Positions 2,167 through 36,770 of a stretch of 64,000 nt of DNA are shown piece after piece. The DNA comes from Chloroflexi bacterium CSP1-4. Its GTDB lineage: Bacteria; Chloroflexota; Limnocylindria; Limnocylindrales; CSP1-4. The DNA is taken from positions 75,266 through 139,265 of the forward strand of contig LDXM01000004.1 in NCBI GenBank assembly GCA_001443375.1, read 5' to 3'. The stretch's first letter is position 1. Every line of letters starts with the position of its first letter. A program made the translations under genes and the position numbers. The notes below the pieces were generated by a model, which was not told the origin of the DNA, ran no database searches, and worked only from the letters and a program-made list of their open reading frames with translations.

Positions 2167-2439
2167 GAGGAAGGCGATGACGAGGCCGCCGGCGATGGCC
2201 AGCAGAGCGACGGCGGCGAGGCGTTCCGGGTCGCGCAGGCGCGAGATCTCGCGCCCGGCGGCGCGTCGGAGGACACCCGCGCGACGGTGTGTCGGCTGGT
2301 CGATCCGGGAGGCGTGTGGGTCCTGGGCGAGCAGTGGTCCGGCCTCGGGCGGTGGCGGCGCTCCCCTGACGGCGCCGGCCTCCGATGCTACAGCACCCCA
2401 CCAGCGTCCCGGCCAGGGACCCCCGTCTATACTCCCCGG

Positions 2440-3279
2440 ATGGCCGAAGGGCACGTCATCGTCATCGGCGGCGCCGAGGACAAGGTCCGCGAGCGGGTCA
2501 TCCTCAACCGCTTCATCGCCCTCGCCGGCGGCCCCGATGCGCGTGTCGCGGTCATCAGCACCGCCTCTGCGCTGGGCACGGCCGCGGGCGAGCTGTATCG
2601 CCGGGTCTTCACCGAGCTTGGCTGCCGCGAGGTCCGCTCGGTCCACGCCATGACCCGCGCGCAGGCCAACGACGACAGCGGCGCCCGCGTCGTGCGCGAG
2701 GCGACGGGCATCTTCCTGACCGGCGGCAACCAGCTGCGCCTCAGCGCGACGATCGGTGGGACGCGCCTAGCGCAGGCCATCCTCGAGCGCCACCGGCAGG
2801 GGGCCGTGGTGGCCGGCACGAGCGCGGGGGCCTCGGCCATGAGCTCACACATGGTGGCCTTCGGGGCCAGCGGCGGGTCGCCGCGCCAGCGCATGGCGCA
2901 GATGGCAGCGGGATTGGGCGTCCTGCCCGGCGTCATCGTCGACCAGCACTTCCAGCAGCGCAACCGGCTGGGACGTCTGCTGGCGATCATCGCCCAGAAC
3001 CCGTCGCTGCTGGGCATCGGCGTGGACGAGGATACCGCCGGCGTGGTGGGCCCGGACCAGGTGCTCGAGGTCATCGGCCGGCGCAGCGTCACCATCATCG
3101 ACGGCTCGGGCGCCGACACCGACGCCTGGGACGTGCCGGCCCATCGGCCGCTGATGATCAGCAACGTCGTCCTCCATTCGCTGCCCGCGGGCTATCGTTT
3201 CGACCTCCGGCGGCGGGTGCGACTGGCGACCCCGGCGCTGCACGCCATCCCCGGCGGGGAGTCGGTCGCTTCCAGCTAG
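2440..3279 (+). CDS. cphB: cyanophycinase (peptidase S51)
   Basis: MAEGHVIVIGGAEDKV...GIFLTGGNQLRL...VVAGTSAGASAMSSHM...GVIVDQHFQQRNRLGRL gives 279 aa with the S51 nucleophile and dimer motifs. ATG at 2440 lies 6 nt after TATACT (2428-2433), a leaderless-type promoter. It is 20 nt upstream of cphA. Confidence 0.85.
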   Translation: MAEGHVIVIGGAEDKVRERVILNRFIALAGGPDARVAVISTASALGTAAGELYRRVFTELGCREVRSVHAMTRAQANDDSGARVVREATGIFLTGGNQLRLSATIGGTRLAQAILERHRQGAVVAGTSAGASAMSSHMVAFGASGGSPRQRMAQMAAGLGVLPGVIVDQHFQQRNRLGRLLAIIAQNPSLLGIGVDEDTAGVVGPDQVLEVIGRRSVTIIDGSGADTDAWDVPAHRPLMISNVVLHSLPAGYRFDLRRRVRLATPALHAIPGGESVASS

Positions 3280-3299
3280 GCCCCGCTTCGGAGGGAACG

Positions 3300-6131
3300 G
3301 TGACCCAGACGATCGTCGCATCGGCCACCCTGTCGGGGCCGCGCCCCGAGCTGCGGATCGTCGAGACGCGGGTCCTGCGCGGCCCGAACTACTGGGCCCG
3401 CGAGCCGGTCATCCGCATGGTCGTCGACCTGGGCGTCCTCGAGGGCTTCCCCTCCGACCGGATCCCCGGCTTCACCGACCGCCTGGTGGAGCTGATGCCC
3501 ACGCTCGAGGAGCACGCCTGCTCGCTCGGGCGCCGGGGCGGCTTCATCAGCCGTCTCCGCGAGGGCACCTGGATGGGCCACATCGCCGAGCACATCGCGC
3601 TCGAGATGCAGACGCTGGCGGGGACCGAGGCGCGCCACGGCAAGACACGCTCCACGGGGGCGCACGGCCAGTACAACGTCATCTACGAGTACGGCGAGGA
3701 ACGCGTCGGCATCGAGGCCGGCAAGATCGCCGTCGCCTTCGTCAACCACCTCGTGGCGCCGGACGATCCAGCCGGCGCGGGTTTCGACTACGCCGCCGAG
3801 CAGGAGCGCCTCATCCGGCTCGCCGAGCGCCAGGCTTTCGGGCCCTCCACGCAGGCCCTCATCGACGAGGCCGTGCAGCGCGACATCCCCTGGATCCGCC
3901 TCGACCGCTTCAGCCTCATCCAGCTCGGGCAGGGCGTGCACCAGCAGCGCATCCGGGCCACCATGACCTCGCGCACGGGCGCCATCGCGGTCGACATCGC
4001 CTCCGACAAGAGCCTGACCAACCAGCTCCTGAGCGCCGCCGGCCTGCCGGTGCCGCGCTCTGAAGTGGTCGGCGAAGAGGAGGAGGCGGTGCGTGCCGCC
4101 CGGTCGATCGGCTTCCCCTGCGTGATCAAGCCGCTAGACGGCAACCACGGCCGGGGCGTCAACCTCGACCTGCGCGACGACGCCGCCGTGCGCCGGGCAT
4201 TCCCCATCGCCCTCGAGCAGTCACGCAGCGGCGACGTCGTGGTCGAGAGCTACGTCGCCGGCAACGACTACCGCTGCCTTGTCATCGGCGGGCACGTGGC
4301 CGCCATCGCCGAGCGCGTGCCGGCCAGCGTCACCGGCGATGGCGAGCGCACGGTCCGCGCGCTCGTGGAGGTCGAGAATGCGGATCCCCGCCGGGGCATC
4401 GGCCACGAGAAGGTGCTCACGAAGATCAAGGTCGACGCCGCCGCCGAAGAGCTGCTGCGGGCCCAGGGCTGGGAGCTCGACGCCGTGCCTCCCAAGGGGA
4501 CCTGGATCAAGCTCGCGCTGACCGGCAACATGTCCACCGGCGGCACGTCGATCGACCGCACCGTCGAAGCCCATCCGGAGAACGTGGAGATCGCCGAGAC
4601 GGCCGCGCGCGTGGTCGGGCTCGACGTGGCCGGCATCGACTTCATCGTGCCCGACATCGCCATCCCCGTGCGCGACCAGGGCGGCGCCATCGTCGAGGTC
4701 AACGCCGCCCCCGGCTTCCGCATGCACACGCATCCCACCGTGGGCGAGCCGCAGTACGTGGCCAGGCCGGTGCTCGACCTGCTCTTCCCGCCCGGCACGC
4801 CGGCGCGCATCCCGATCGTGGCGGTCACGGGCACGAACGGCAAGACGACCACGGTGCGCATGATCGCCCACATCCTCAAGCTCATGGGCCGGCGCGTGGG
4901 CATGACCACCACCGACGGCATCGTCATCGACGGGCGGCTCATCAAGCGCGGCGACATGTCCGGCCCGAAGTCGGCGCAGATGGTGCTGCAGAACCCGTCC
5001 GTGGACACGGCCGTCTTCGAGGTGGCGCGCGGCGGCATCCTGCGCGAGGGCCTGGGTTACGACCGCAACGACGTGGCCGTGGTCACCAACGTGACCGGCG
5101 ATCATCTCGGGCTGGGCGGCATCACCACGCTGCGCCAACTGGCCGACGTGAAGGGGGTCGTGGTGGAGGCCGTCCCCCGCTCCGGGACGGCCGTGCTCAA
5201 CGCCGACGACCCGCACGTCGCGCGCCTGGCACGGCACAGCCACGGCAAGATCGTCTACTTCTCCATGGCCACCGGCCGCGACGAGGACGGCTGGCTGCGC
5301 GTGGACAGCCACTGCGGCCGCGGCGGCGCGGCGATGGTCCTCCAGGAGACCGAGGAGGGCGAGCTGGTCGTGCTGCGCCACGGGTCGCGCACGATGCCCC
5401 TCCTGCACGCGCACCTCATGCCGGCCACGTTCGGGGGGCGGGCGCGCATGAACGTGGCCAACGCGCTCGCCGCGGCCGCGGCGGCCTGGGCGGCCGGCGC
5501 CCACCTGCACGACATCCGGCAGGGGCTGCGGACCTTCTCGACCTCCTTCTTCCAGGCGCCCGGCAGGCTCAACCTCATCGAGATGAACGGCTACAAGGTC
5601 GTCATCGACTACTGCCACAACGTGGACGGCATGCGCCGCCTGGCCGAGTTCGTGGAGCTCATGATGGCCGGCGACGAGCCGGGCCCGAAACGAGGTCGAG
5701 GGCGTACGCGGGCCGTCGAGCCGGGCGCGCGGGCCGGGCGGGCACTCGGGGTCATCGGCATCCCCGGCGACCGGCCCGACCACGACCAGCGCGAGTACGG
5801 GGCGCTCGCCGCCACCGCCTTCGATCGCCTCTACGTACGCGAGGACCACAACCTGCGCGGCCGGAAGCCTGGCGAGTCGGCGGCCAACGTGCTCGCCGGG
5901 GTCGAGACGGCGCGGAAGCACGGGCGGGCCCGCACCGAGCAGGCCGACGCCGTCCTGGGTGAGATCGAGGCGTCGCGCGTCGCGCTGCGCGAGGCACAGC
6001 CCGGCGATCTCGTCGTCATCTGCGCGGACGACGCCGCGGCCGTCTACGGGGAGGCGATGGCCCTCAACCGTGCGCCGCGCCGCGGCACGGCCATCGTCGC
6101 GCCGGGAGAGATGGCCGTCCCGGAGGGGTAG
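3300..6131 (+). CDS. cphA: cyanophycin synthetase CphA1 (N domain + ATP-grasp G domain + Mur-ligase M domain)
   Basis: GTG at 3300 follows GGAGGG (3290-3295). N-terminus has LRGPNYW. The ATP-grasp region has IKPLDGNHGRGV...VVESYVAGNDYRCLVIGG. The Mur-ligase P-loop is VAVTGTNGKTTT, with DHLGLGG and a C-terminal IGIPGDRPD. Length is 943 aa. The six-frame ORF 2385..6131 is longer only through upstream read-through. Confidence 0.9.
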   Translation: MTQTIVASATLSGPRPELRIVETRVLRGPNYWAREPVIRMVVDLGVLEGFPSDRIPGFTDRLVELMPTLEEHACSLGRRGGFISRLREGTWMGHIAEHIALEMQTLAGTEARHGKTRSTGAHGQYNVIYEYGEERVGIEAGKIAVAFVNHLVAPDDPAGAGFDYAAEQERLIRLAERQAFGPSTQALIDEAVQRDIPWIRLDRFSLIQLGQGVHQQRIRATMTSRTGAIAVDIASDKSLTNQLLSAAGLPVPRSEVVGEEEEAVRAARSIGFPCVIKPLDGNHGRGVNLDLRDDAAVRRAFPIALEQSRSGDVVVESYVAGNDYRCLVIGGHVAAIAERVPASVTGDGERTVRALVEVENADPRRGIGHEKVLTKIKVDAAAEELLRAQGWELDAVPPKGTWIKLALTGNMSTGGTSIDRTVEAHPENVEIAETAARVVGLDVAGIDFIVPDIAIPVRDQGGAIVEVNAAPGFRMHTHPTVGEPQYVARPVLDLLFPPGTPARIPIVAVTGTNGKTTTVRMIAHILKLMGRRVGMTTTDGIVIDGRLIKRGDMSGPKSAQMVLQNPSVDTAVFEVARGGILREGLGYDRNDVAVVTNVTGDHLGLGGITTLRQLADVKGVVVEAVPRSGTAVLNADDPHVARLARHSHGKIVYFSMATGRDEDGWLRVDSHCGRGGAAMVLQETEEGELVVLRHGSRTMPLLHAHLMPATFGGRARMNVANALAAAAAAWAAGAHLHDIRQGLRTFSTSFFQAPGRLNLIEMNGYKVVIDYCHNVDGMRRLAEFVELMMAGDEPGPKRGRGRTRAVEPGARAGRALGVIGIPGDRPDHDQREYGALAATAFDRLYVREDHNLRGRKPGESAANVLAGVETARKHGRARTEQADAVLGEIEASRVALREAQPGDLVVICADDAAAVYGEAMALNRAPRRGTAIVAPGEMAVPEG

Positions 6132-6149
6132 GGGCGGTCGGGCCGGCGG

Positions 6150-6245
6150 TCAGGCGCGCGGCAGGTTGGCGGAGACGATCCGGACGATCCAGAGGATCTC
6201 GAGCGCGGAGATGACGACGAGCGCGATGCCGACGATCGTTTCCAT
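6150..6245 (-). CDS. small hydrophobic membrane peptide (31 aa), METIVGIALVVISALEILWIVRIVSANLPRA
   Basis: ATG at 6245 is preceded by AGGAGG (plus-strand cctcct 6251-6256) with 5-nt spacing. It encodes a single TM helix and sits in the 215-bp convergent gap between cphA and the CphA paralog. It is the only strong-SD ORF in that gap. Confidence 0.35.
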   Translation of the reverse strand: METIVGIALVVISALEILWIVRIVSANLPRA

Positions 6246-6346
6246 CGGTTCCTCCTGCACGCCGCGGTGGGCACGGCGGTCATGGGGCATGATGCCGGGC
6301 CGCGCGAACGCGTGCAAGGCTTTCGCGCAACCGGGCGGCCCGGCCG

Positions 6347-8134
6347 TCAACGCCCCCGGTACGGCCGACCCTGCAGGCGGGGGATGAGTTCCAGGAGCTC
6401 GGCGCCGGCGTCGATCGGTCGCGCGCCCAGCTCGGCCAGGAGCTGCTGGACCCCATCGCGGTCCTCGTGGCACATCAGCGCGACGACCGCCGGCTCGTTG
6501 GCGCCGTTGCCGTTGCCGCGGGCGAGGACGGCAGCCAGGGCCGCCGTCTCGCTCTCGTGGACGGGCACGTCGGCGGCGCGCACGCCCGCCTCCGCCAGGC
6601 CGGCCCGGAACTCCCCCACGACCGACTCGCGGCTGCGGCCGCGCAGGTACGTGAGCGTCTCCTTGATGACCACGTGGCTCGCCCGGGCTCCGGCGATCCG
6701 GGCGATGCCGCGCAGGGTGTCGTCGGGCCGGTCGCCGGCGGTGCCGATGATGATGGTCACCGGACGCGCCCGGCCCGCCGCGCCCCCGGCGATCCCCTCG
6801 GCGACGTCGAGCAGGACCGCGACGCCGGCCTCGTTGTGGGCGAAGTCGACGATGACGACCCGGTTTCCCAGGCGGTACAGGTTCAGGCGCCCCGGAGCCT
6901 CCTCCACCGACGGCCGGAAGCCCTGGAGACCGGCGGCGACCTGCTCCACCGCGACCCCCAGCGCACGCGCAGCCGCCACGGCCGCGAGCGCGTTGCCGAC
7001 GTTGTGCCTGGCCAGGCCGAAGAGCGTCGCCGGCGCGTCGGCGATGGCCATCACGGGCTGCCTCGCCTGGCCCGTCGCTTCGATGATCCAGCCCGCCTCG
7101 GCGATCACGGCCCGGCCGCCCCGGGAGAGGTGCCGCCGGATGAGCGGCGCCGTCGTCCCGTGCAGCGAGAAGAGCGTCACCGGCGCGCGGGCTCGTCGCG
7201 CGATGGCGGCAACGAGGGCGTCGTCGGCGTTGAGGACGACGGTACCCGCCGGCCGCGTGATGCGCGCGATCGTCGCCTTCACCTCGGCCAGCTCCGGGAG
7301 CGTGTGGATCCCCTGCAGGTCGAGATGGTCGGAGCTGACGTTGGTGAGGACCGCGACGTCGTTGGACGCGTAGCCCACGCCGCGCAGCAGGATGCCCCCG
7401 CGGGCGGTCTCGAGGACGGCGACCTCCACGTCGGATCGGTCGAGCACCTGCTTCGCTCCACCCGGGCCCGTCCAGTCGCCAGGATCGACCATGCGTCCGT
7501 CCACGTGGACGCCGTCGGACGTCGTCATGCCCACCCGCCGCCCCGCAGCGCGGAGGATCGCGCCGATCATGCGGGTCGTGGTGCTCTTGCCGTTCGTGCC
7601 GCTGACGCTGACGATCGGTATGCGTCGGCGATCGTCGGTGAGCCAGGCCGGCGGGGTCGCACCGGCGGCGCGGATGCGGACGAGCGCGCGGGCCAGCGTA
7701 GGGCTTTTGGCGACCCGCACGGTACGCGGGTCGAGGCCGCGCTCGGTCAGGCGCCAGGCCGCGTCCGCCAGCTCCCGCGCGCGCTCGTGCTCCCGCCACG
7801 GGAAGGCCACGATCCAATGGCCCGGCTCGCTGGTGCGGTGGACGGTGATGGGCAGGGTCCGTCGAGGCCGCCCGTCGGGACTGGTTTCCCGCCCGAGCCA
7901 GGCCGCGCCACCGCTCAGGCGGTGGAGGCGGCGCACCCAGGCAGCCAGGTCGCGGATGGTCCGCGGCACCTCGCGCGCCCGGACGGGACGCCCCAGCGCG
8001 ACGACGGCGTGCGCGCCCGGGAGCCGCGCGCCGTACCACGTGCGGCGTCGGCCGACGGCCACCTCGATCTTCGCGGTGGGCTCCAGGCGGTAGAGGTTGG
8101 GGCCCTCGAGGAGCCGCACTTCGACGAGGCGCAC
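6347..8134 (-). CDS. cyanophycin-synthetase-like protein with CphA N-domain fused directly to Mur-ligase M-domain; no ATP-grasp domain
   Basis: N-terminus MRLVEVRLLEGPNLYRLEPTAKIEVAVG aligns with the CphA N-terminus LRIVETRVLRGPNYWAREPVIRMVVDLG. The Mur-ligase P-loop IPIVSVSGTNGKSTTTRMIGAIL begins at about residue 175. Further matches to the cphA M-domain: GRRVGMTTSDG, DVAVLTNVSSDHLDL, C-terminal IIGTAGDRPDD. It has no DGNHGRGV-type ATP-grasp segment. GTG start at 8134 lies 9 nt after TATACT (minus strand, plus coordinates 8144-8149). Length is 595 aa. Confidence 0.8.
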   Translation of the reverse strand: MRLVEVRLLEGPNLYRLEPTAKIEVAVGRRRTWYGARLPGAHAVVALGRPVRAREVPRTIRDLAAWVRRLHRLSGGAAWLGRETSPDGRPRRTLPITVHRTSEPGHWIVAFPWREHERARELADAAWRLTERGLDPRTVRVAKSPTLARALVRIRAAGATPPAWLTDDRRRIPIVSVSGTNGKSTTTRMIGAILRAAGRRVGMTTSDGVHVDGRMVDPGDWTGPGGAKQVLDRSDVEVAVLETARGGILLRGVGYASNDVAVLTNVSSDHLDLQGIHTLPELAEVKATIARITRPAGTVVLNADDALVAAIARRARAPVTLFSLHGTTAPLIRRHLSRGGRAVIAEAGWIIEATGQARQPVMAIADAPATLFGLARHNVGNALAAVAAARALGVAVEQVAAGLQGFRPSVEEAPGRLNLYRLGNRVVIVDFAHNEAGVAVLLDVAEGIAGGAAGRARPVTIIIGTAGDRPDDTLRGIARIAGARASHVVIKETLTYLRGRSRESVVGEFRAGLAEAGVRAADVPVHESETAALAAVLARGNGNGANEPAVVALMCHEDRDGVQQLLAELGARPIDAGAELLELIPRLQGRPYRGR

Positions 8135-8204
8135 GTTCGGCCGAGTATAGGCGGCCGGGCGGTGCCGTAGACTGCCCGCCGATGGCCCCCCGATCGAGCT
8201 GCCG

Positions 8205-9443
8205 ATGAAGAGCTACCAGCGCGCCGGCGACGTGGCCGAGTCCGAGCTGCGCGCCATGCGCGGGATCGTCGAGGAGGAGCTGCCGGCCTACCTCGAGGAC
8301 CTGGCCACGCTTGTCAACGTCGACTGTGGGAGCTACACGAAGGCCGGCGTGGACCGGGTGGGCCAGTGGACGGCCCGTTTCCTCGAGCGCCTCGGCGCGA
8401 CCGTCGCGATCCACTCGAACGAACGGCTCGGCGACACGATCGTGGGCACCTTCAGGGGCAACCCGCGCGGGCCCCGTGCCCTGCTCATCGGCCACCTCGA
8501 CACGGTCTTCGACCCGGGCACGGCGAAGGAACGGCCCTTCCGCGTCTCCGACGGCCGCGCCTACGGACCGGGCGTCACGGACATGAAGAGCGGCCTCTTG
8601 GCCGGCCTCTACGCGATCCTGGCCCTGCGGGCGGCCGCCGACGATGACGACGACTGGATGCCCTTCGAGCGCCTCGTCTTCGTGGCCAACCCCGACGAGG
8701 AGATCGGCTCGCCGGCCAGCACCGCGATCATCCGCGAGGCGGCGCTGGGATCGGACGTCGCCTTCGTCCTCGAGTGCGCCCGCGCCAATGGCGACATCGT
8801 CAGCTCGCGCAAAGGCACCGTGGACCTGCGCCTGACCATCCGTGGGCGCGCCGCCCACGCCGGCGTCGAGCCCGAGAAGGGCCGCAGCGCCATCCTCGAG
8901 GCCGCCCATCTGACGATCGCCCTCCAGGCGCTCAATGGGCGCTGGCCTGGCGTCACCTGCAACGTCGGCGTGGTGAAGGGCGGCACGCGCCCCAACGTCG
9001 TGTCCGAGCAGGCGGTCCTCGAGGTGGACGTGCGCAGCCCGGGCCGCGCCGATCTCGAGACGGCCGAGGCGGAGGTCCGGGCCATCTGCGCGGCCTCGAC
9101 GGTGCCGGACGTGACGACCACGATCGAGGAGATGGGGCGCCACTGGCCGATGGAGAAGCTGGCGGCATCGGCACGCCTGGTCGACCACGCGCAGGCGCTG
9201 GCCCGACGGCTCGGCTTCGCCGTCCGCGACGCTGAGACCGGTGGCGCCTCGGACGCGAACACCACCTCCGGACTGGGCGTGCCCACGCTCGACGGCCTCG
9301 GCCCGGTCGGCGGCGACGACCACGCCCCGGGCGAGTACCTCGAGCTCGACTCGATCGTGCCTCGCGTCACGCTCCTGGCCGCCCTGCTGCTGGCGACGGC
9401 GCGAGACGGGGTCGTGGCCACCTGGCGGCCGCACCCGGCATGA
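8205..9443 (+). CDS. M20 family metallopeptidase (ArgE/DapE/CPG2-like amidohydrolase)
   Basis: HLDTV motif, GPGVTDMKSG, the EEIGS metal-ligand region and a dimerisation-domain insert. Length is 412 aa. It is divergent from the CphA paralog and directly upstream of ridA. Confidence 0.8.
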   Translation: MKSYQRAGDVAESELRAMRGIVEEELPAYLEDLATLVNVDCGSYTKAGVDRVGQWTARFLERLGATVAIHSNERLGDTIVGTFRGNPRGPRALLIGHLDTVFDPGTAKERPFRVSDGRAYGPGVTDMKSGLLAGLYAILALRAAADDDDDWMPFERLVFVANPDEEIGSPASTAIIREAALGSDVAFVLECARANGDIVSSRKGTVDLRLTIRGRAAHAGVEPEKGRSAILEAAHLTIALQALNGRWPGVTCNVGVVKGGTRPNVVSEQAVLEVDVRSPGRADLETAEAEVRAICAASTVPDVTTTIEEMGRHWPMEKLAASARLVDHAQALARRLGFAVRDAETGGASDANTTSGLGVPTLDGLGPVGGDDHAPGEYLELDSIVPRVTLLAALLLATARDGVVATWRPHPA

Positions 9444-9467: not shown

Positions 9468-9860
9468 GTGAGCGTCACGAGGCGCCTGATCTCGTCGGGC
9501 GGGCCGTGGGAGGCGAGTGCCGGCTACAGCCGGGCTGTCGTCGTCGGCGACAGCTGCTGGGTCTCGGGCACGACCGACGCGGGTCCCGACGGCCGTTCGC
9601 TCCACCCCGTCGACCCCGCCGGTCAGGCGCGCGCCGCCTTCGCCATCGTCGAGCAGGCCCTCACGGAGGCTGGTTTCACGCTCGGCGACGTCGTGCGCAC
9701 GCGGATGTACGTCACGGACATGTCCCGTTCACCGGAGGTGCTGGCCGTCCACGGCGAGCTGTTCGGGGCCATCCGTCCCGCGGCGATGATCGTCGAGGTC
9801 GCTCGGCTCATCGAGCCGTCCCTGATGGTCGAGGTGGAGGTCGAGGCCCGGCGGGGTTAG
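9468..9860 (+). CDS. ridA: RidA/YjgF/TdcF family reactive-intermediate deaminase
   Basis: 130 aa. The RidA-type pattern (...VRTRMYVTDM...) is present. GTG start is 25 nt after the M20 stop. Confidence 0.75.
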   Translation: MSVTRRLISSGGPWEASAGYSRAVVVGDSCWVSGTTDAGPDGRSLHPVDPAGQARAAFAIVEQALTEAGFTLGDVVRTRMYVTDMSRSPEVLAVHGELFGAIRPAAMIVEVARLIEPSLMVEVEVEARRG

Positions 9861-13035: not shown

Positions 13036-14464
13036 CAGGAGGCGGCCGACGGCGGCATGGTTGGCTCCGCTGCGAGCTGCGGCGTGCGGGGCAGGACCAC
13101 TCCCACCCGTGCGCCGCCGATGGGCAGATTCTCCGCGAATGCGCGCCCGCCGTGGGCGCGTGCCAGCTCGTCCACGATGGCCAGTCCCAGGCCGCTGCCG
13201 GGCCCGGAGCGCGACGGGTCGGCGCGGTAGAAACGTTCGAAGATGCGCCCCAGCGCCGCGCCGGCGATGCCCGGCCCATCGTCGCGCACCGCGAGCAGGA
13301 CCTCGCCGCCGGGCAGGGCCGCCGCCTCCACCGTCACGTGCCCCCCGGGCCGGGGCGCGTGCGCCAGCCCGTTGGCGACGAGGTTGCCAAGGATGCGCTC
13401 GACCGCGCTGCGGTCGGCGGCGCAGGGCAGGGGACCCGCCACCGGCAGCGCGGTGAGCTCCAAGCCCTCCGCGCCCGCCCGCGGTGCGAAGCGCTCCACG
13501 GCCGCGGCCGCCAGCTCCCCGCCGTCGAGCTGCTCGACGCGCAACGGCCGGCCCGCCTCGAGATCGGCGAGGTCGCCCAGGTCGTCCACCATCCGCTCCA
13601 GGCGCGACGTCTCGTCGGCGATGGCCCGGGCCGCCCTGGCCCAATCCGGGCCGTCGGCGGTGCCGTCGAGCAGCGCCTCGGCGAAGCCGCCGATGACCGT
13701 CAGGGGCGTGCGCAGGTCGTGGCGCAGGCCGGCCAGGAGGTCGGCCTGCGCCGTGCGGGCGTGGCCGACCTCGGCGCTCATGGCGTTGAAGGCGGCGCTC
13801 GCCCGGGCGACCTCCTGCGGGCCCTCCTCGGGCAGCGGTCCCGGCAGCCGGCCGCCCGCGACGCGGCCCGCCGCCGTCGCCAACCGGTCTAGCGGCCGCG
13901 TCACGGAGCCCGAGAGCCAGACCGCGAGCGGCGCGCCGACGACGGCGACGACAAGGCCCGCCACGAACAGGGCCCGGACGAGGTCGGCCAGCGCCCGACG
14001 TCCCGCATCGTCCGGCCGGGCGAGCACGAGCGCCCACGGGCCGCTCTGGGTAAGGGCGCCGCCGAACGGGGCGGCGACGTAGACGTACGAGCCCGTGCTC
14101 GGCACGGCGAACGTGCCACGATCGATCGTCCCCCGCGCGTTCGGTGGGTCGAGGTCCACGCGGTCCACGGGCAGGTCGTCGCCCAGGTCCACCACGCGGC
14201 CGCCCTGGTCCACGAGGAAGAGGCTGATGTCGCGAGCCGCGGTCTGGGCCGTCAGCTCGCGCAGGACGTTGCGCAGGCGAACTCCCTGTTCGATCCGCAG
14301 CCGGGCCTGCGAGACGAGGGGCACCGCAAGGTCGGACAGCGCGGCACTGTTGGCCTCTGCGTGGAGGTCGCGCAGGAGGACGAAGAGGACGCCGCCCAGT
14401 GCGAAGAGGATCGCCAGCGCCAGGAGCGCGAAGGCCCCCGCCACGCGGCCGCGCAGCGTCCTCA
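13035..14464 (-). CDS. sensor histidine kinase (two TM helices, HAMP, HisKA, HATPase_c)
   Basis: N-terminal TM helix (AFALLALAILFALGGVLFVLL) and H-box LRHDLRTPLTV. G-boxes GPGIAGAAL and GSGLGLAIV. ATG (14464-14462) overlaps the RR stop (ATGA). Confidence 0.85.
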
Positions 14465-36682: not shown

Positions 36683-36770
36683 GGGCGAGTGGCGGAATGG
36701 CAGACGCGCCGGCCTTAGGAGCCGGTGCCGCGCGAGCGGCGTGTCGGTTCGACTCCGACCTCGCCTACCA
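36683..36770 (+). tRNA. tRNA-Leu (anticodon TAG), CCA encoded
   Basis: Acceptor GGGCGAG/CTCGCCT with G-U closing pair. Anticodon stem CCGGC/GCCGG with loop CTTAGGA. Long variable arm TGCCGCGCGAGCGGCGTG. T-arm GTCGG-TTCGACT-CCGAC. Discriminator A plus CCA. TAGACT hexamer lies 6 nt upstream of the 5' end. Confidence 0.85.

Follow-up and report, generated by a model that had tools for sequence, protein, structure and literature searches.

A cyanophycin synthetase paralog without the ATP-grasp domain in Limnocylindria and Actinomycetota, a putative stand-alone side-chain ligase

According to our analysis, a gene in a 64,000-nucleotide stretch of contig LDXM01000004.1 of Chloroflexi bacterium CSP1-4 (assembly GCA_001443375.1; the whole of this stretch is referred to here as the window) encodes a paralog of the cyanophycin synthetase CphA1 in which a reduced N domain is followed without interruption by the two parts of the M domain, Mcore and Mlid, and from which the G (ATP-grasp) domain is absent. 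We refer to the gene and its product as N+M, and the coordinates of its domains and neighbors are collected in Table 1. N+M is putatively a stand-alone Mur-type, ATP-dependent side-chain (isopeptide) ligase acting in trans on cyanophycin chains that carry unmodified Asp, a function to which we assign roughly even chances. Its acceptor, donor, and physiological role are proposed on the basis of architecture, catalytic residues, family conservation, and synteny. A first-pass annotation, made from the DNA letters, had suggested an uncharacterized enzyme class, and indeed no characterized homolog was found; however, the sequences are already in the databases, where they are called "Mur ligase family protein" or misnamed "cyanophycin synthetase," and the novelty lies in the recognition of the architecture. 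In the open-access literature (the search did not extend to papers behind a subscription, among them the CphA1 structure paper of 2021), we found neither a G-less CphA paralog nor a function for these "Mur ligase family" proteins.

A complete M domain of the CphA1 type occupies residues 168 to 585 of the N+M protein and shares 42% identity with that of the neighboring CphA1. In Pfam, Mur_ligase_M is matched over residues 177 to 389 (78.6 bits, cutoff 24) and Mur_ligase_C over residues 415 to 535, just under its cutoff (Table 1). The model TIGR02068 covers only residues 167 to 540, corresponding to model positions 474 to 838, with 381 bits against a cutoff of 850, which leaves N+M outside the membership of this family although it is clearly of the CphA1 lineage; the CphA1 of the window reaches 1132 bits on the same model. 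The best match in PDB is CphA1 7lg5 (E value of 1e-67, residues 169 to 518 against 485 to 825), while MurE-like entries follow at 7e-20 or weaker. When 24 members of the N+M family were aligned with 70 CphA1 M domains from the fetched loci, 73 columns reached a conservation of 90% or more in CphA1, and 51 of these were found to be identical in the N+M members, including K183, E242, D269-H270, N302, D305, R416, H433-N434, GDR 467 to 469, and RGR 498 to 500. Each of the ATP and Mg contacts described for TeCphA1 (PMC9427784) has its counterpart in N+M, at K183, S184, S206, E242, R416, and H433. The first four correspond to K499, T500, T522, and E558 of TeCphA1 in Mcore, where the motif alignment shows the Mg ligands S184 and S206 to be conservative T-to-S changes, and the last two correspond to R731 and H748. 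Since these contacts are kept together with the DH, N..D, GDR, and RGR motifs, the protein should be catalytically active, as far as its residues indicate. The complete-looking M domain of the first-pass annotation was thus found to be intact in its Mur-ligase domains and ATP/Mg residues, and the quoted motifs stand at residues 179 to 185 (GTNGKST, from the GTNGKSTT P-loop), 269 to 273 (DHLDL), and 467 to 472 (GDRPDD).

Between the N domain and the M domain we could detect no remnant of a G domain, in agreement with the direct fusion initially described. No ATP-grasp family of Pfam matches the N+M protein, and a tblastn search with the CphA1 G domain against positions 6100 to 8300 in all frames returned nothing better than an E value of 2.9. 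In nearly all of the 120 matches listed for the protein, the P-loop stands at residue positions 164 to 208 and not at about 500. The absence of G remnants, in other frames as well, and the existence of a large conserved family of full-length proteins rule out a decayed cphA copy. Because it has no G domain, N+M is not expected to be able to extend the Asp backbone. Compared to the CphA1 structures 7LG5, 7LGJ, and 7WAE, it has the same N fold, complete Mcore and Mlid, and all the ATP/Mg residues, but differs in missing the G domain and in the reduction of its N domain. CphA2 (7TA5 and 8FXH) shows the opposite reduction, as it combines the N domain with an active G domain while its M domain is truncated and inactive (PMC10273328), whereas N+M has a full M domain and no G domain. 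This opposition had been pointed out in the first-pass annotation and holds, while the side-chain-only activity proposed along with it is a putative one.

Three independent lines of profile-profile and fold comparison assign the N-terminal domain to the CphA type. The initial claim that this domain is diagnostic does not extend to its sequence, which is reduced and highly diverged. Pfam PF18921 found no match on residues 1 to 175, even at an E value of 10, nor on the N regions of three Actinomycetota members, and BLAST aligned residues 1 to 40 with CphA1 residues 18 to 57 at 38% identity, in this 40-residue segment only. A hidden Markov model (HMM) of 20 N regions did not reach CphA1 among the PDB sequences, and one of 22 N regions searched against 1.84 billion representatives returned 191 matches, all of them family members or fragments and none of them CphA1. 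Hence, of the domains looked for by Pfam and HMM searches, Mur_ligase_M was found, Mur_ligase_C fell below its cutoff, ATP-grasp was absent as anticipated, and the N domain was left unmatched. However, when 33 N regions from Limnocylindria and Actinomycetota were compared by hhalign with 32 CphA1 N domains, they aligned over 126 columns with a probability of 97% and an E value of 8.8e-11, and the best 12 Foldseek matches of the N+M N domain were all CphA1 or CphA2. The AlphaFold model of the full-length protein (predicted local distance difference test [pLDDT] score of 86.8, predicted template modeling score of 0.88) superposes on SuCphA1 7lgj/7lg5 over both N and M, across about 905 columns with the G domain as a gap, with template modeling scores of 0.73 to 0.75 normalized to the query; N and M are placed alike relative to each other in the two proteins. 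Residues 34 to 43 are modeled with low confidence (pLDDT below 50). The peptidase site in the CphA1 N domain is marked by the motif Cx19HxxEH (PMC9262961), which the CphA1 of the window carries, its PF18921 N domain, ATP-grasp, and Mur ligase domains being all matched in Pfam. In N+M, neither the active-site Cys nor the HxxEH helix residues are found where CphA1 has them; even so reduced, the domain has 32 columns that are invariant among 22 members 52 to 72% identical to the window protein. As a side observation, the only PDB match of the HMM of 20 N regions was a weak one to RuBisCO (E value of 0.12), involving N+M residues 89 to 132 (positions 7739 to 7870, minus strand) and the N-terminal domain of a form III enzyme through the common stretch G.W...PW.e.ER, which we regard as a chance resemblance.

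In CphA1, the M domain joins Arg to the β-carboxylate of the C-terminal Asp, and the G domain can proceed only when the terminal unit already bears its Arg side chain (PMC9427784). N+M, deriving from the cyanophycin synthetase lineage with its reduced N domain directly followed by Mcore and Mlid, would represent the complete side-chain-ligating unit of CphA1 minus the backbone-elongating ATP-grasp domain. It would bind cyanophycin-type chains built by the neighboring CphA1, activate a free Asp β-carboxylate to the acyl-phosphate, and then ligate an amino acid in trans, where the incoming residue could be arginine or a different one. The most obvious substrates would be chains released from CphA1 with a bare C-terminal Asp, which are dead ends for the G domain. 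The need of the G domain for a terminal Arg is the rationale for such a finisher role.

The closest protein matches of N+M are named Candidatus Limnocylindrales or Limnocylindria (phylum Chloroflexota), with more than 100 cluster representatives of 580 to 620 aa that are 60 to 76% identical over the full length, and full-length homologs number in the thousands, which together with the invariant N-domain columns speaks for selection on the family. This type of protein occurs in many soil Chloroflexota and Actinomycetota. A protein identical to the window product (P0001) occurs on seven metagenome contigs from several samples. Our locus survey, in which one genome per GTDB species was scanned, identified 12 loci with full-length N+M matches, belonging to a Chloroflexia metagenome-assembled genome (MAG), a Sphaerobacteraceae MAG, two Kribbella species, Nocardioides, two Terrabacter species, and several Actinomycetota MAGs. 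When the Kribbella protein was used as the query, homologs were found across the whole genus (K. flavida DSM 17836 among them), in Nocardioides, and in an Acidimicrobiales MAG. Nine of the 12 species-level loci, from both Chloroflexota and Actinomycetota, have a complete cphA1 downstream of N+M and on the opposite strand, in a tail-to-tail arrangement. cphB lies beyond it in six loci, i.e., in all those where the fetched flank reaches that far, so that the co-occurrence with cphA1 and cphB raised in the first-pass annotation is borne out. Of the other three loci, one includes just the end of a cphA1 at its border, another is truncated where the contig stops, and the third is the Sphaerobacteraceae one. 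The convergent arrangement was also found in five further Limnocylindria contigs, two of which have two to three unrelated genes inserted between N+M and cphA1. The cphB assignment in the window is based on the gene at the same position in locus L083, which encodes a Peptidase_S51 protein of 279 aa; the window copy is 75% identical to that of L001.

On the other side of the N+M gene, Limnocylindria have a divergent block formed by the genes of an M20 metallopeptidase and a RidA-family protein, conserved in L001 and L081 to L085 and followed by AzlC/AzlD and γ-glutamyltranspeptidase genes (the block in the window extends to about position 14037). The M20 product of the window scores 294 bits on NF004788, under the cutoff of 349. 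In Actinomycetota, N+M is instead immediately preceded by two short-chain dehydrogenase genes that are fabG-inhA-like (L002, L003, L007, and L035). This likeness to fabG and inhA was judged from N-terminal motifs only, and a MoaA-like gene lies further upstream. The N+M proteins of L007 (positions 2372 to 4633 of that locus), L017, and L019, from Terrabacter and an Actinomycetales MAG, have an extra C-terminal domain of about 170 aa, which in L007 matches TPR_5 (PF12688, E value of 1e-24) and thus suggests, by its family, protein-protein interaction.

The three-part layout of N+M, with an acceptor-side N domain, a P-loop ATPase, and a C-terminal amino-acid-binding domain, is common to MurE and the other Mur ligases (MurC to MurF; 1E8C). 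The GDR and R motifs of MurE align with those of N+M, the acyl-phosphate chemistry is presumably alike, and the N+M model has structural matches to MurE with E values of about 1e-20. An unrelated Mur-ligase-type enzyme, active on the cell wall, a cofactor, or another polymer and close to cphA1 for historical reasons only, would be consistent with the position of the Actinomycetota gene directly after a housekeeping pair, with the one member (L006) that has no cphA1 nearby, and with the weak support in trees for the deep position of N+M relative to CphA1 (in a tree rooted on E. coli MurC to MurF, the monophyly of N+M is supported by 55 to 63% and that of CphA1 by 18 to 33%). We consider this very improbable, however, since the closest relatives of N+M are by far the CphA1 M domains, with E values of 1e-67 compared to 1e-13 to 7e-20 for MurE-like proteins, outside this family the N domain is known from CphA1 and CphA2 only and is not the UDP-binding, Rossmann-like domain 1 of Mur ligases, and the convergent arrangement persists across phyla and local insertions. 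Moreover, the gene is not in a cell wall (dcw) context, and all its scores on the MurC to MurF equivalog models are far below the cutoffs.

While the ATP/Mg site of N+M is that of CphA1, residues of Mlid around the presumed amino acid site are changed. CphA1 D829, found in 66 of 70 CphA1s, is replaced by T in Limnocylindria N+M (T473 in the window protein) and by A, M, L, or V in Actinomycetota, and D849, a position that is acidic in 68 of 70 CphA1s, is replaced by T (T493) in Limnocylindria and by K, A, L, or T in Actinomycetota. In the alignment, D849 falls on the leading Asp of the E. coli MurE motif DNPR, which together with GDR we take, from PDB 1E8C, to act in amino acid binding. In the N+M family, Y496, preceded by a one-residue insertion, and E435 are newly invariant, and the CphA1-invariant positions S558G, R582L, and F841A have been switched. 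In contrast, R469 and R498, which align with both of the carboxylate-binding Arg residues of E. coli MurE, are kept, and the incoming substrate is therefore probably still an α-amino acid, by analogy with MurE. On the same analogy, the donor side chain may be recognized differently from Arg in CphA1, and since the acidic residues of the D829/D849 type are gone, the residue added may not be arginine. The GTAGDRPDD region on which the first-pass annotation relied is present, but with the loss of these two near-invariant acidic residues in its vicinity the re-arginylation that it assumed becomes less secure.

These changes bring in a reading in which N+M ligates a non-arginine residue to Asp β-carboxylates, or to the free α-carboxylate of the Arg side chains, to give a modified cyanophycin, and in which the M20 peptidase of Limnocylindria would remove the modification. 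The loss of D829 and D849, the invariant Y496 and E435, the insertion preceding Y496, and the retained R469 and R498 all point in this direction, as does the divergent operon with the glutamate-carboxypeptidase-like M20 gene conserved in Limnocylindria. On the other hand, the assignment of D829 and D849 to Arg binding comes by analogy from MurE and was not found stated for CphA1, E435 and Y496 could equally bind a guanidinium group, no M20 match above 50 bits was seen in the Actinomycetota loci, and the open-access literature searched gave no report of a modified cyanophycin from such organisms. We therefore regard this modifying activity as possible but rather doubtful.

The CphA1s encoded beside N+M genes, referred to here as partner CphA1s, form one clade in 100 of 100 bootstraps. 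This clade divides broadly into Limnocylindria and Actinomycetota in the same way as the N+M tree, which suggests joint inheritance, or joint transfer, of the two genes. A recent duplication of the neighboring cphA1 was rejected as the origin of N+M, which groups with the partner clade in 0 of 100 bootstraps. The M domains of the partners are fully intact, with 119 of the 121 columns conserved in other CphA1s kept, and this also rules out N+M as the replacement for a defective partner M domain. CphA1 residue 485 (at about nucleotides 4752 to 4754), within the G-x-P-R motif that closes the G domain, is Gln in 9 of 9 partners and Arg in 61 of 61 CphA1s that are not beside an N+M gene; this R-to-Q change may be a clade marker or may be tied to working with N+M.

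The partnership can be explained in two further ways. In one, N+M would make β-Asp-Arg dipeptides or short oligomers from free amino acids, which would serve CphA1 as primers or precursors. CphA1 M-type chemistry is in principle able to join Asp and Arg, slow first Asp-Arg joining steps have been proposed to limit priming (PMC9262961), and the altered acceptor-side residues S558G and R582L could mean a smaller acceptor. However, all nine partner CphA1s keep Cx19HxxEH, the site of the N-domain peptidase that makes CphA1 primer independent (PMC9262961), and with this primer-generating motif in place an external source of primers is not needed. Furthermore, no cphA2, encoding the dipeptide polymerase, was seen in the loci, and N+M retains an N domain that a small-molecule ligase would not obviously need, all of which makes primer synthesis improbable in our view. 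In the other, the main role of N+M would be structural or regulatory: it would use its N domain to dock onto the CphA1 oligomer and either add M-site capacity or sense ATP or amino acids. PMC9427784 describes the CphA1 N domain as an oligomerization interface, and the coinheritance of N+M with one specific CphA1 clade, the R-to-Q change unique to that clade, and the TPR_5 domain of Terrabacter-type members would fit such docking; nevertheless, the ATP/Mg catalytic residues are completely conserved in both phyla, which argues for catalysis, and we give little credit to a mainly noncatalytic role.

The proposal of a stand-alone side-chain ligase acting on cyanophycin chains has itself several points to face. 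The donor pocket of N+M, and perhaps its acceptor pocket, would be unlike those of CphA1, judging by the changes at D829, D849, S558, F841, and R582. There is no obvious deficit to complement, since the M domains of the partner CphA1s are fully intact. In Limnocylindria N+M, the region corresponding to the chain-binding helix αa is modeled as a low-confidence loop (pLDDT below 50 at residues 34 to 43), and the anchoring of the polymer may be lost. The Sphaerobacteraceae member (L006) has no cphA1 within 8 kb downstream. Finally, within Actinomycetota, part of the synteny could stem from a gene order handed down by descent and not from a functional link.

The enzymes currently described in cyanophycin metabolism are of three kinds, the synthetases (CphA1 and CphA2), the cyanophycinases, and the dipeptidases. 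A side-chain-only ligase would add a new step to this set, such as the repair, finishing, or modification of the polymer. In a bolder form, which we advance very tentatively and consider unlikely, N+M would be a fourth type of enzyme that decorates the polymer with a non-arginine residue or extends its side chains, giving Kribbella, Nocardioides, Terrabacter, and Limnocylindria a chemically distinct cyanophycin, and in addition it may preserve the architecture that preceded CphA1, that of a three-domain Mur-like ligase which later gained an inserted ATP-grasp domain. In either form, N+M bears on how the three-domain CphA1 was assembled in evolution. Tailored cyanophycins are of industrial interest, as side-chain composition controls solubility, and N+M could be a tool for producing them. 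The hypothesis is directly testable because cultured hosts exist, among them Kribbella flavida DSM 17836 and Terrabacter species.

Table 1. Features of the N+M locus in the window
Feature	Position	Strand	Remarks
N+M gene, CphA paralog without G (ATP-grasp) domain	6347..8134	-	595-aa ORF (open reading frame), GTG start
Reduced CphA-type N domain, residues 1-160	7655..8134	-	GPN motif at 11-13; no HxxEH site
Mcore, Mur-ligase central ATPase domain, residues 168-411	6902..7633	-	PF08245, E 8e-22
P-loop GTNGKST within Mcore	7580-7600	-	Mcore also has S206, E242, D269-H270
Mlid, Mur-ligase C-terminal domain, residues 412-585	6380..6901	-	PF02875, E 3e-5, 25.3 bits (cutoff 28.4)
Mlid motifs R416, H433-N434, GDR 467-469, Y496-L-R-G-R 500	within 6380..6901	-	
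TATACT, -10-like hexamer 9 nt 5' of the N+M GTG start	8144..8149	-	consensus match
31-aa (31-codon) hydrophobic ORF adjoining the N+M gene on its 3' side	6150..6245	-	
Canonical cphA1, 943 aa	3300..6131	+	N+G+M with Cx19HxxEH; convergent with the N+M gene
cphB, cyanophycinase, 279 aa	2440..3279	+	directly upstream of cphA1
M20 metallopeptidase gene, glutamate-carboxypeptidase-like	8205..9443	+	PF01546 + PF07687; divergent from the N+M gene
RidA-family gene	9468..9860	+	PF01042, E 5e-23; 3' of the M20 gene

The TATACT-N9-GTG element reported for the N+M gene is present (Table 1), and a TATCCT-N10-GTG element stands at the equivalent place in L001 and L082, i.e., in two of three diverged relatives, giving the common arrangement TAT(A/C)CT-N9/10-GTG. 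The spacing suggests, from the nucleotide sequence, an mRNA with a very short leader or none. The arrangement fits the claimed leaderless-type promoter but amounts to a consensus match only, and a generic sigma-70 scan detected no full promoter and no -35/-10 pair at the start of the N+M gene. In the window, whose guanine-plus-cytosine content is high at about 72 to 75%, the sole RNA gene detected by ARAGORN and Rfam is a tRNA-Leu (positions 36683 to 36770, plus strand), and Rfam found no other family at its gathering score. A TAGACT hexamer at positions 8168 to 8173 (plus strand), 5' of the M20 gene, lies inside the motif CAGTCTACG, which is also present in L082. About 100 nt past the N+M gene and on the same strand, the 31-codon ORF encodes a single hydrophobic helix (METIVGIALVVISALEILWIVRIVSANLPRA), is annotated as a gene in L081 and L083 to L085, and is probably a real small membrane protein, possibly cotranscribed with N+M; resembling peptides also trail the N+M gene in L081 and L001, the N+M proteins of which are only about 57 to 62% identical.

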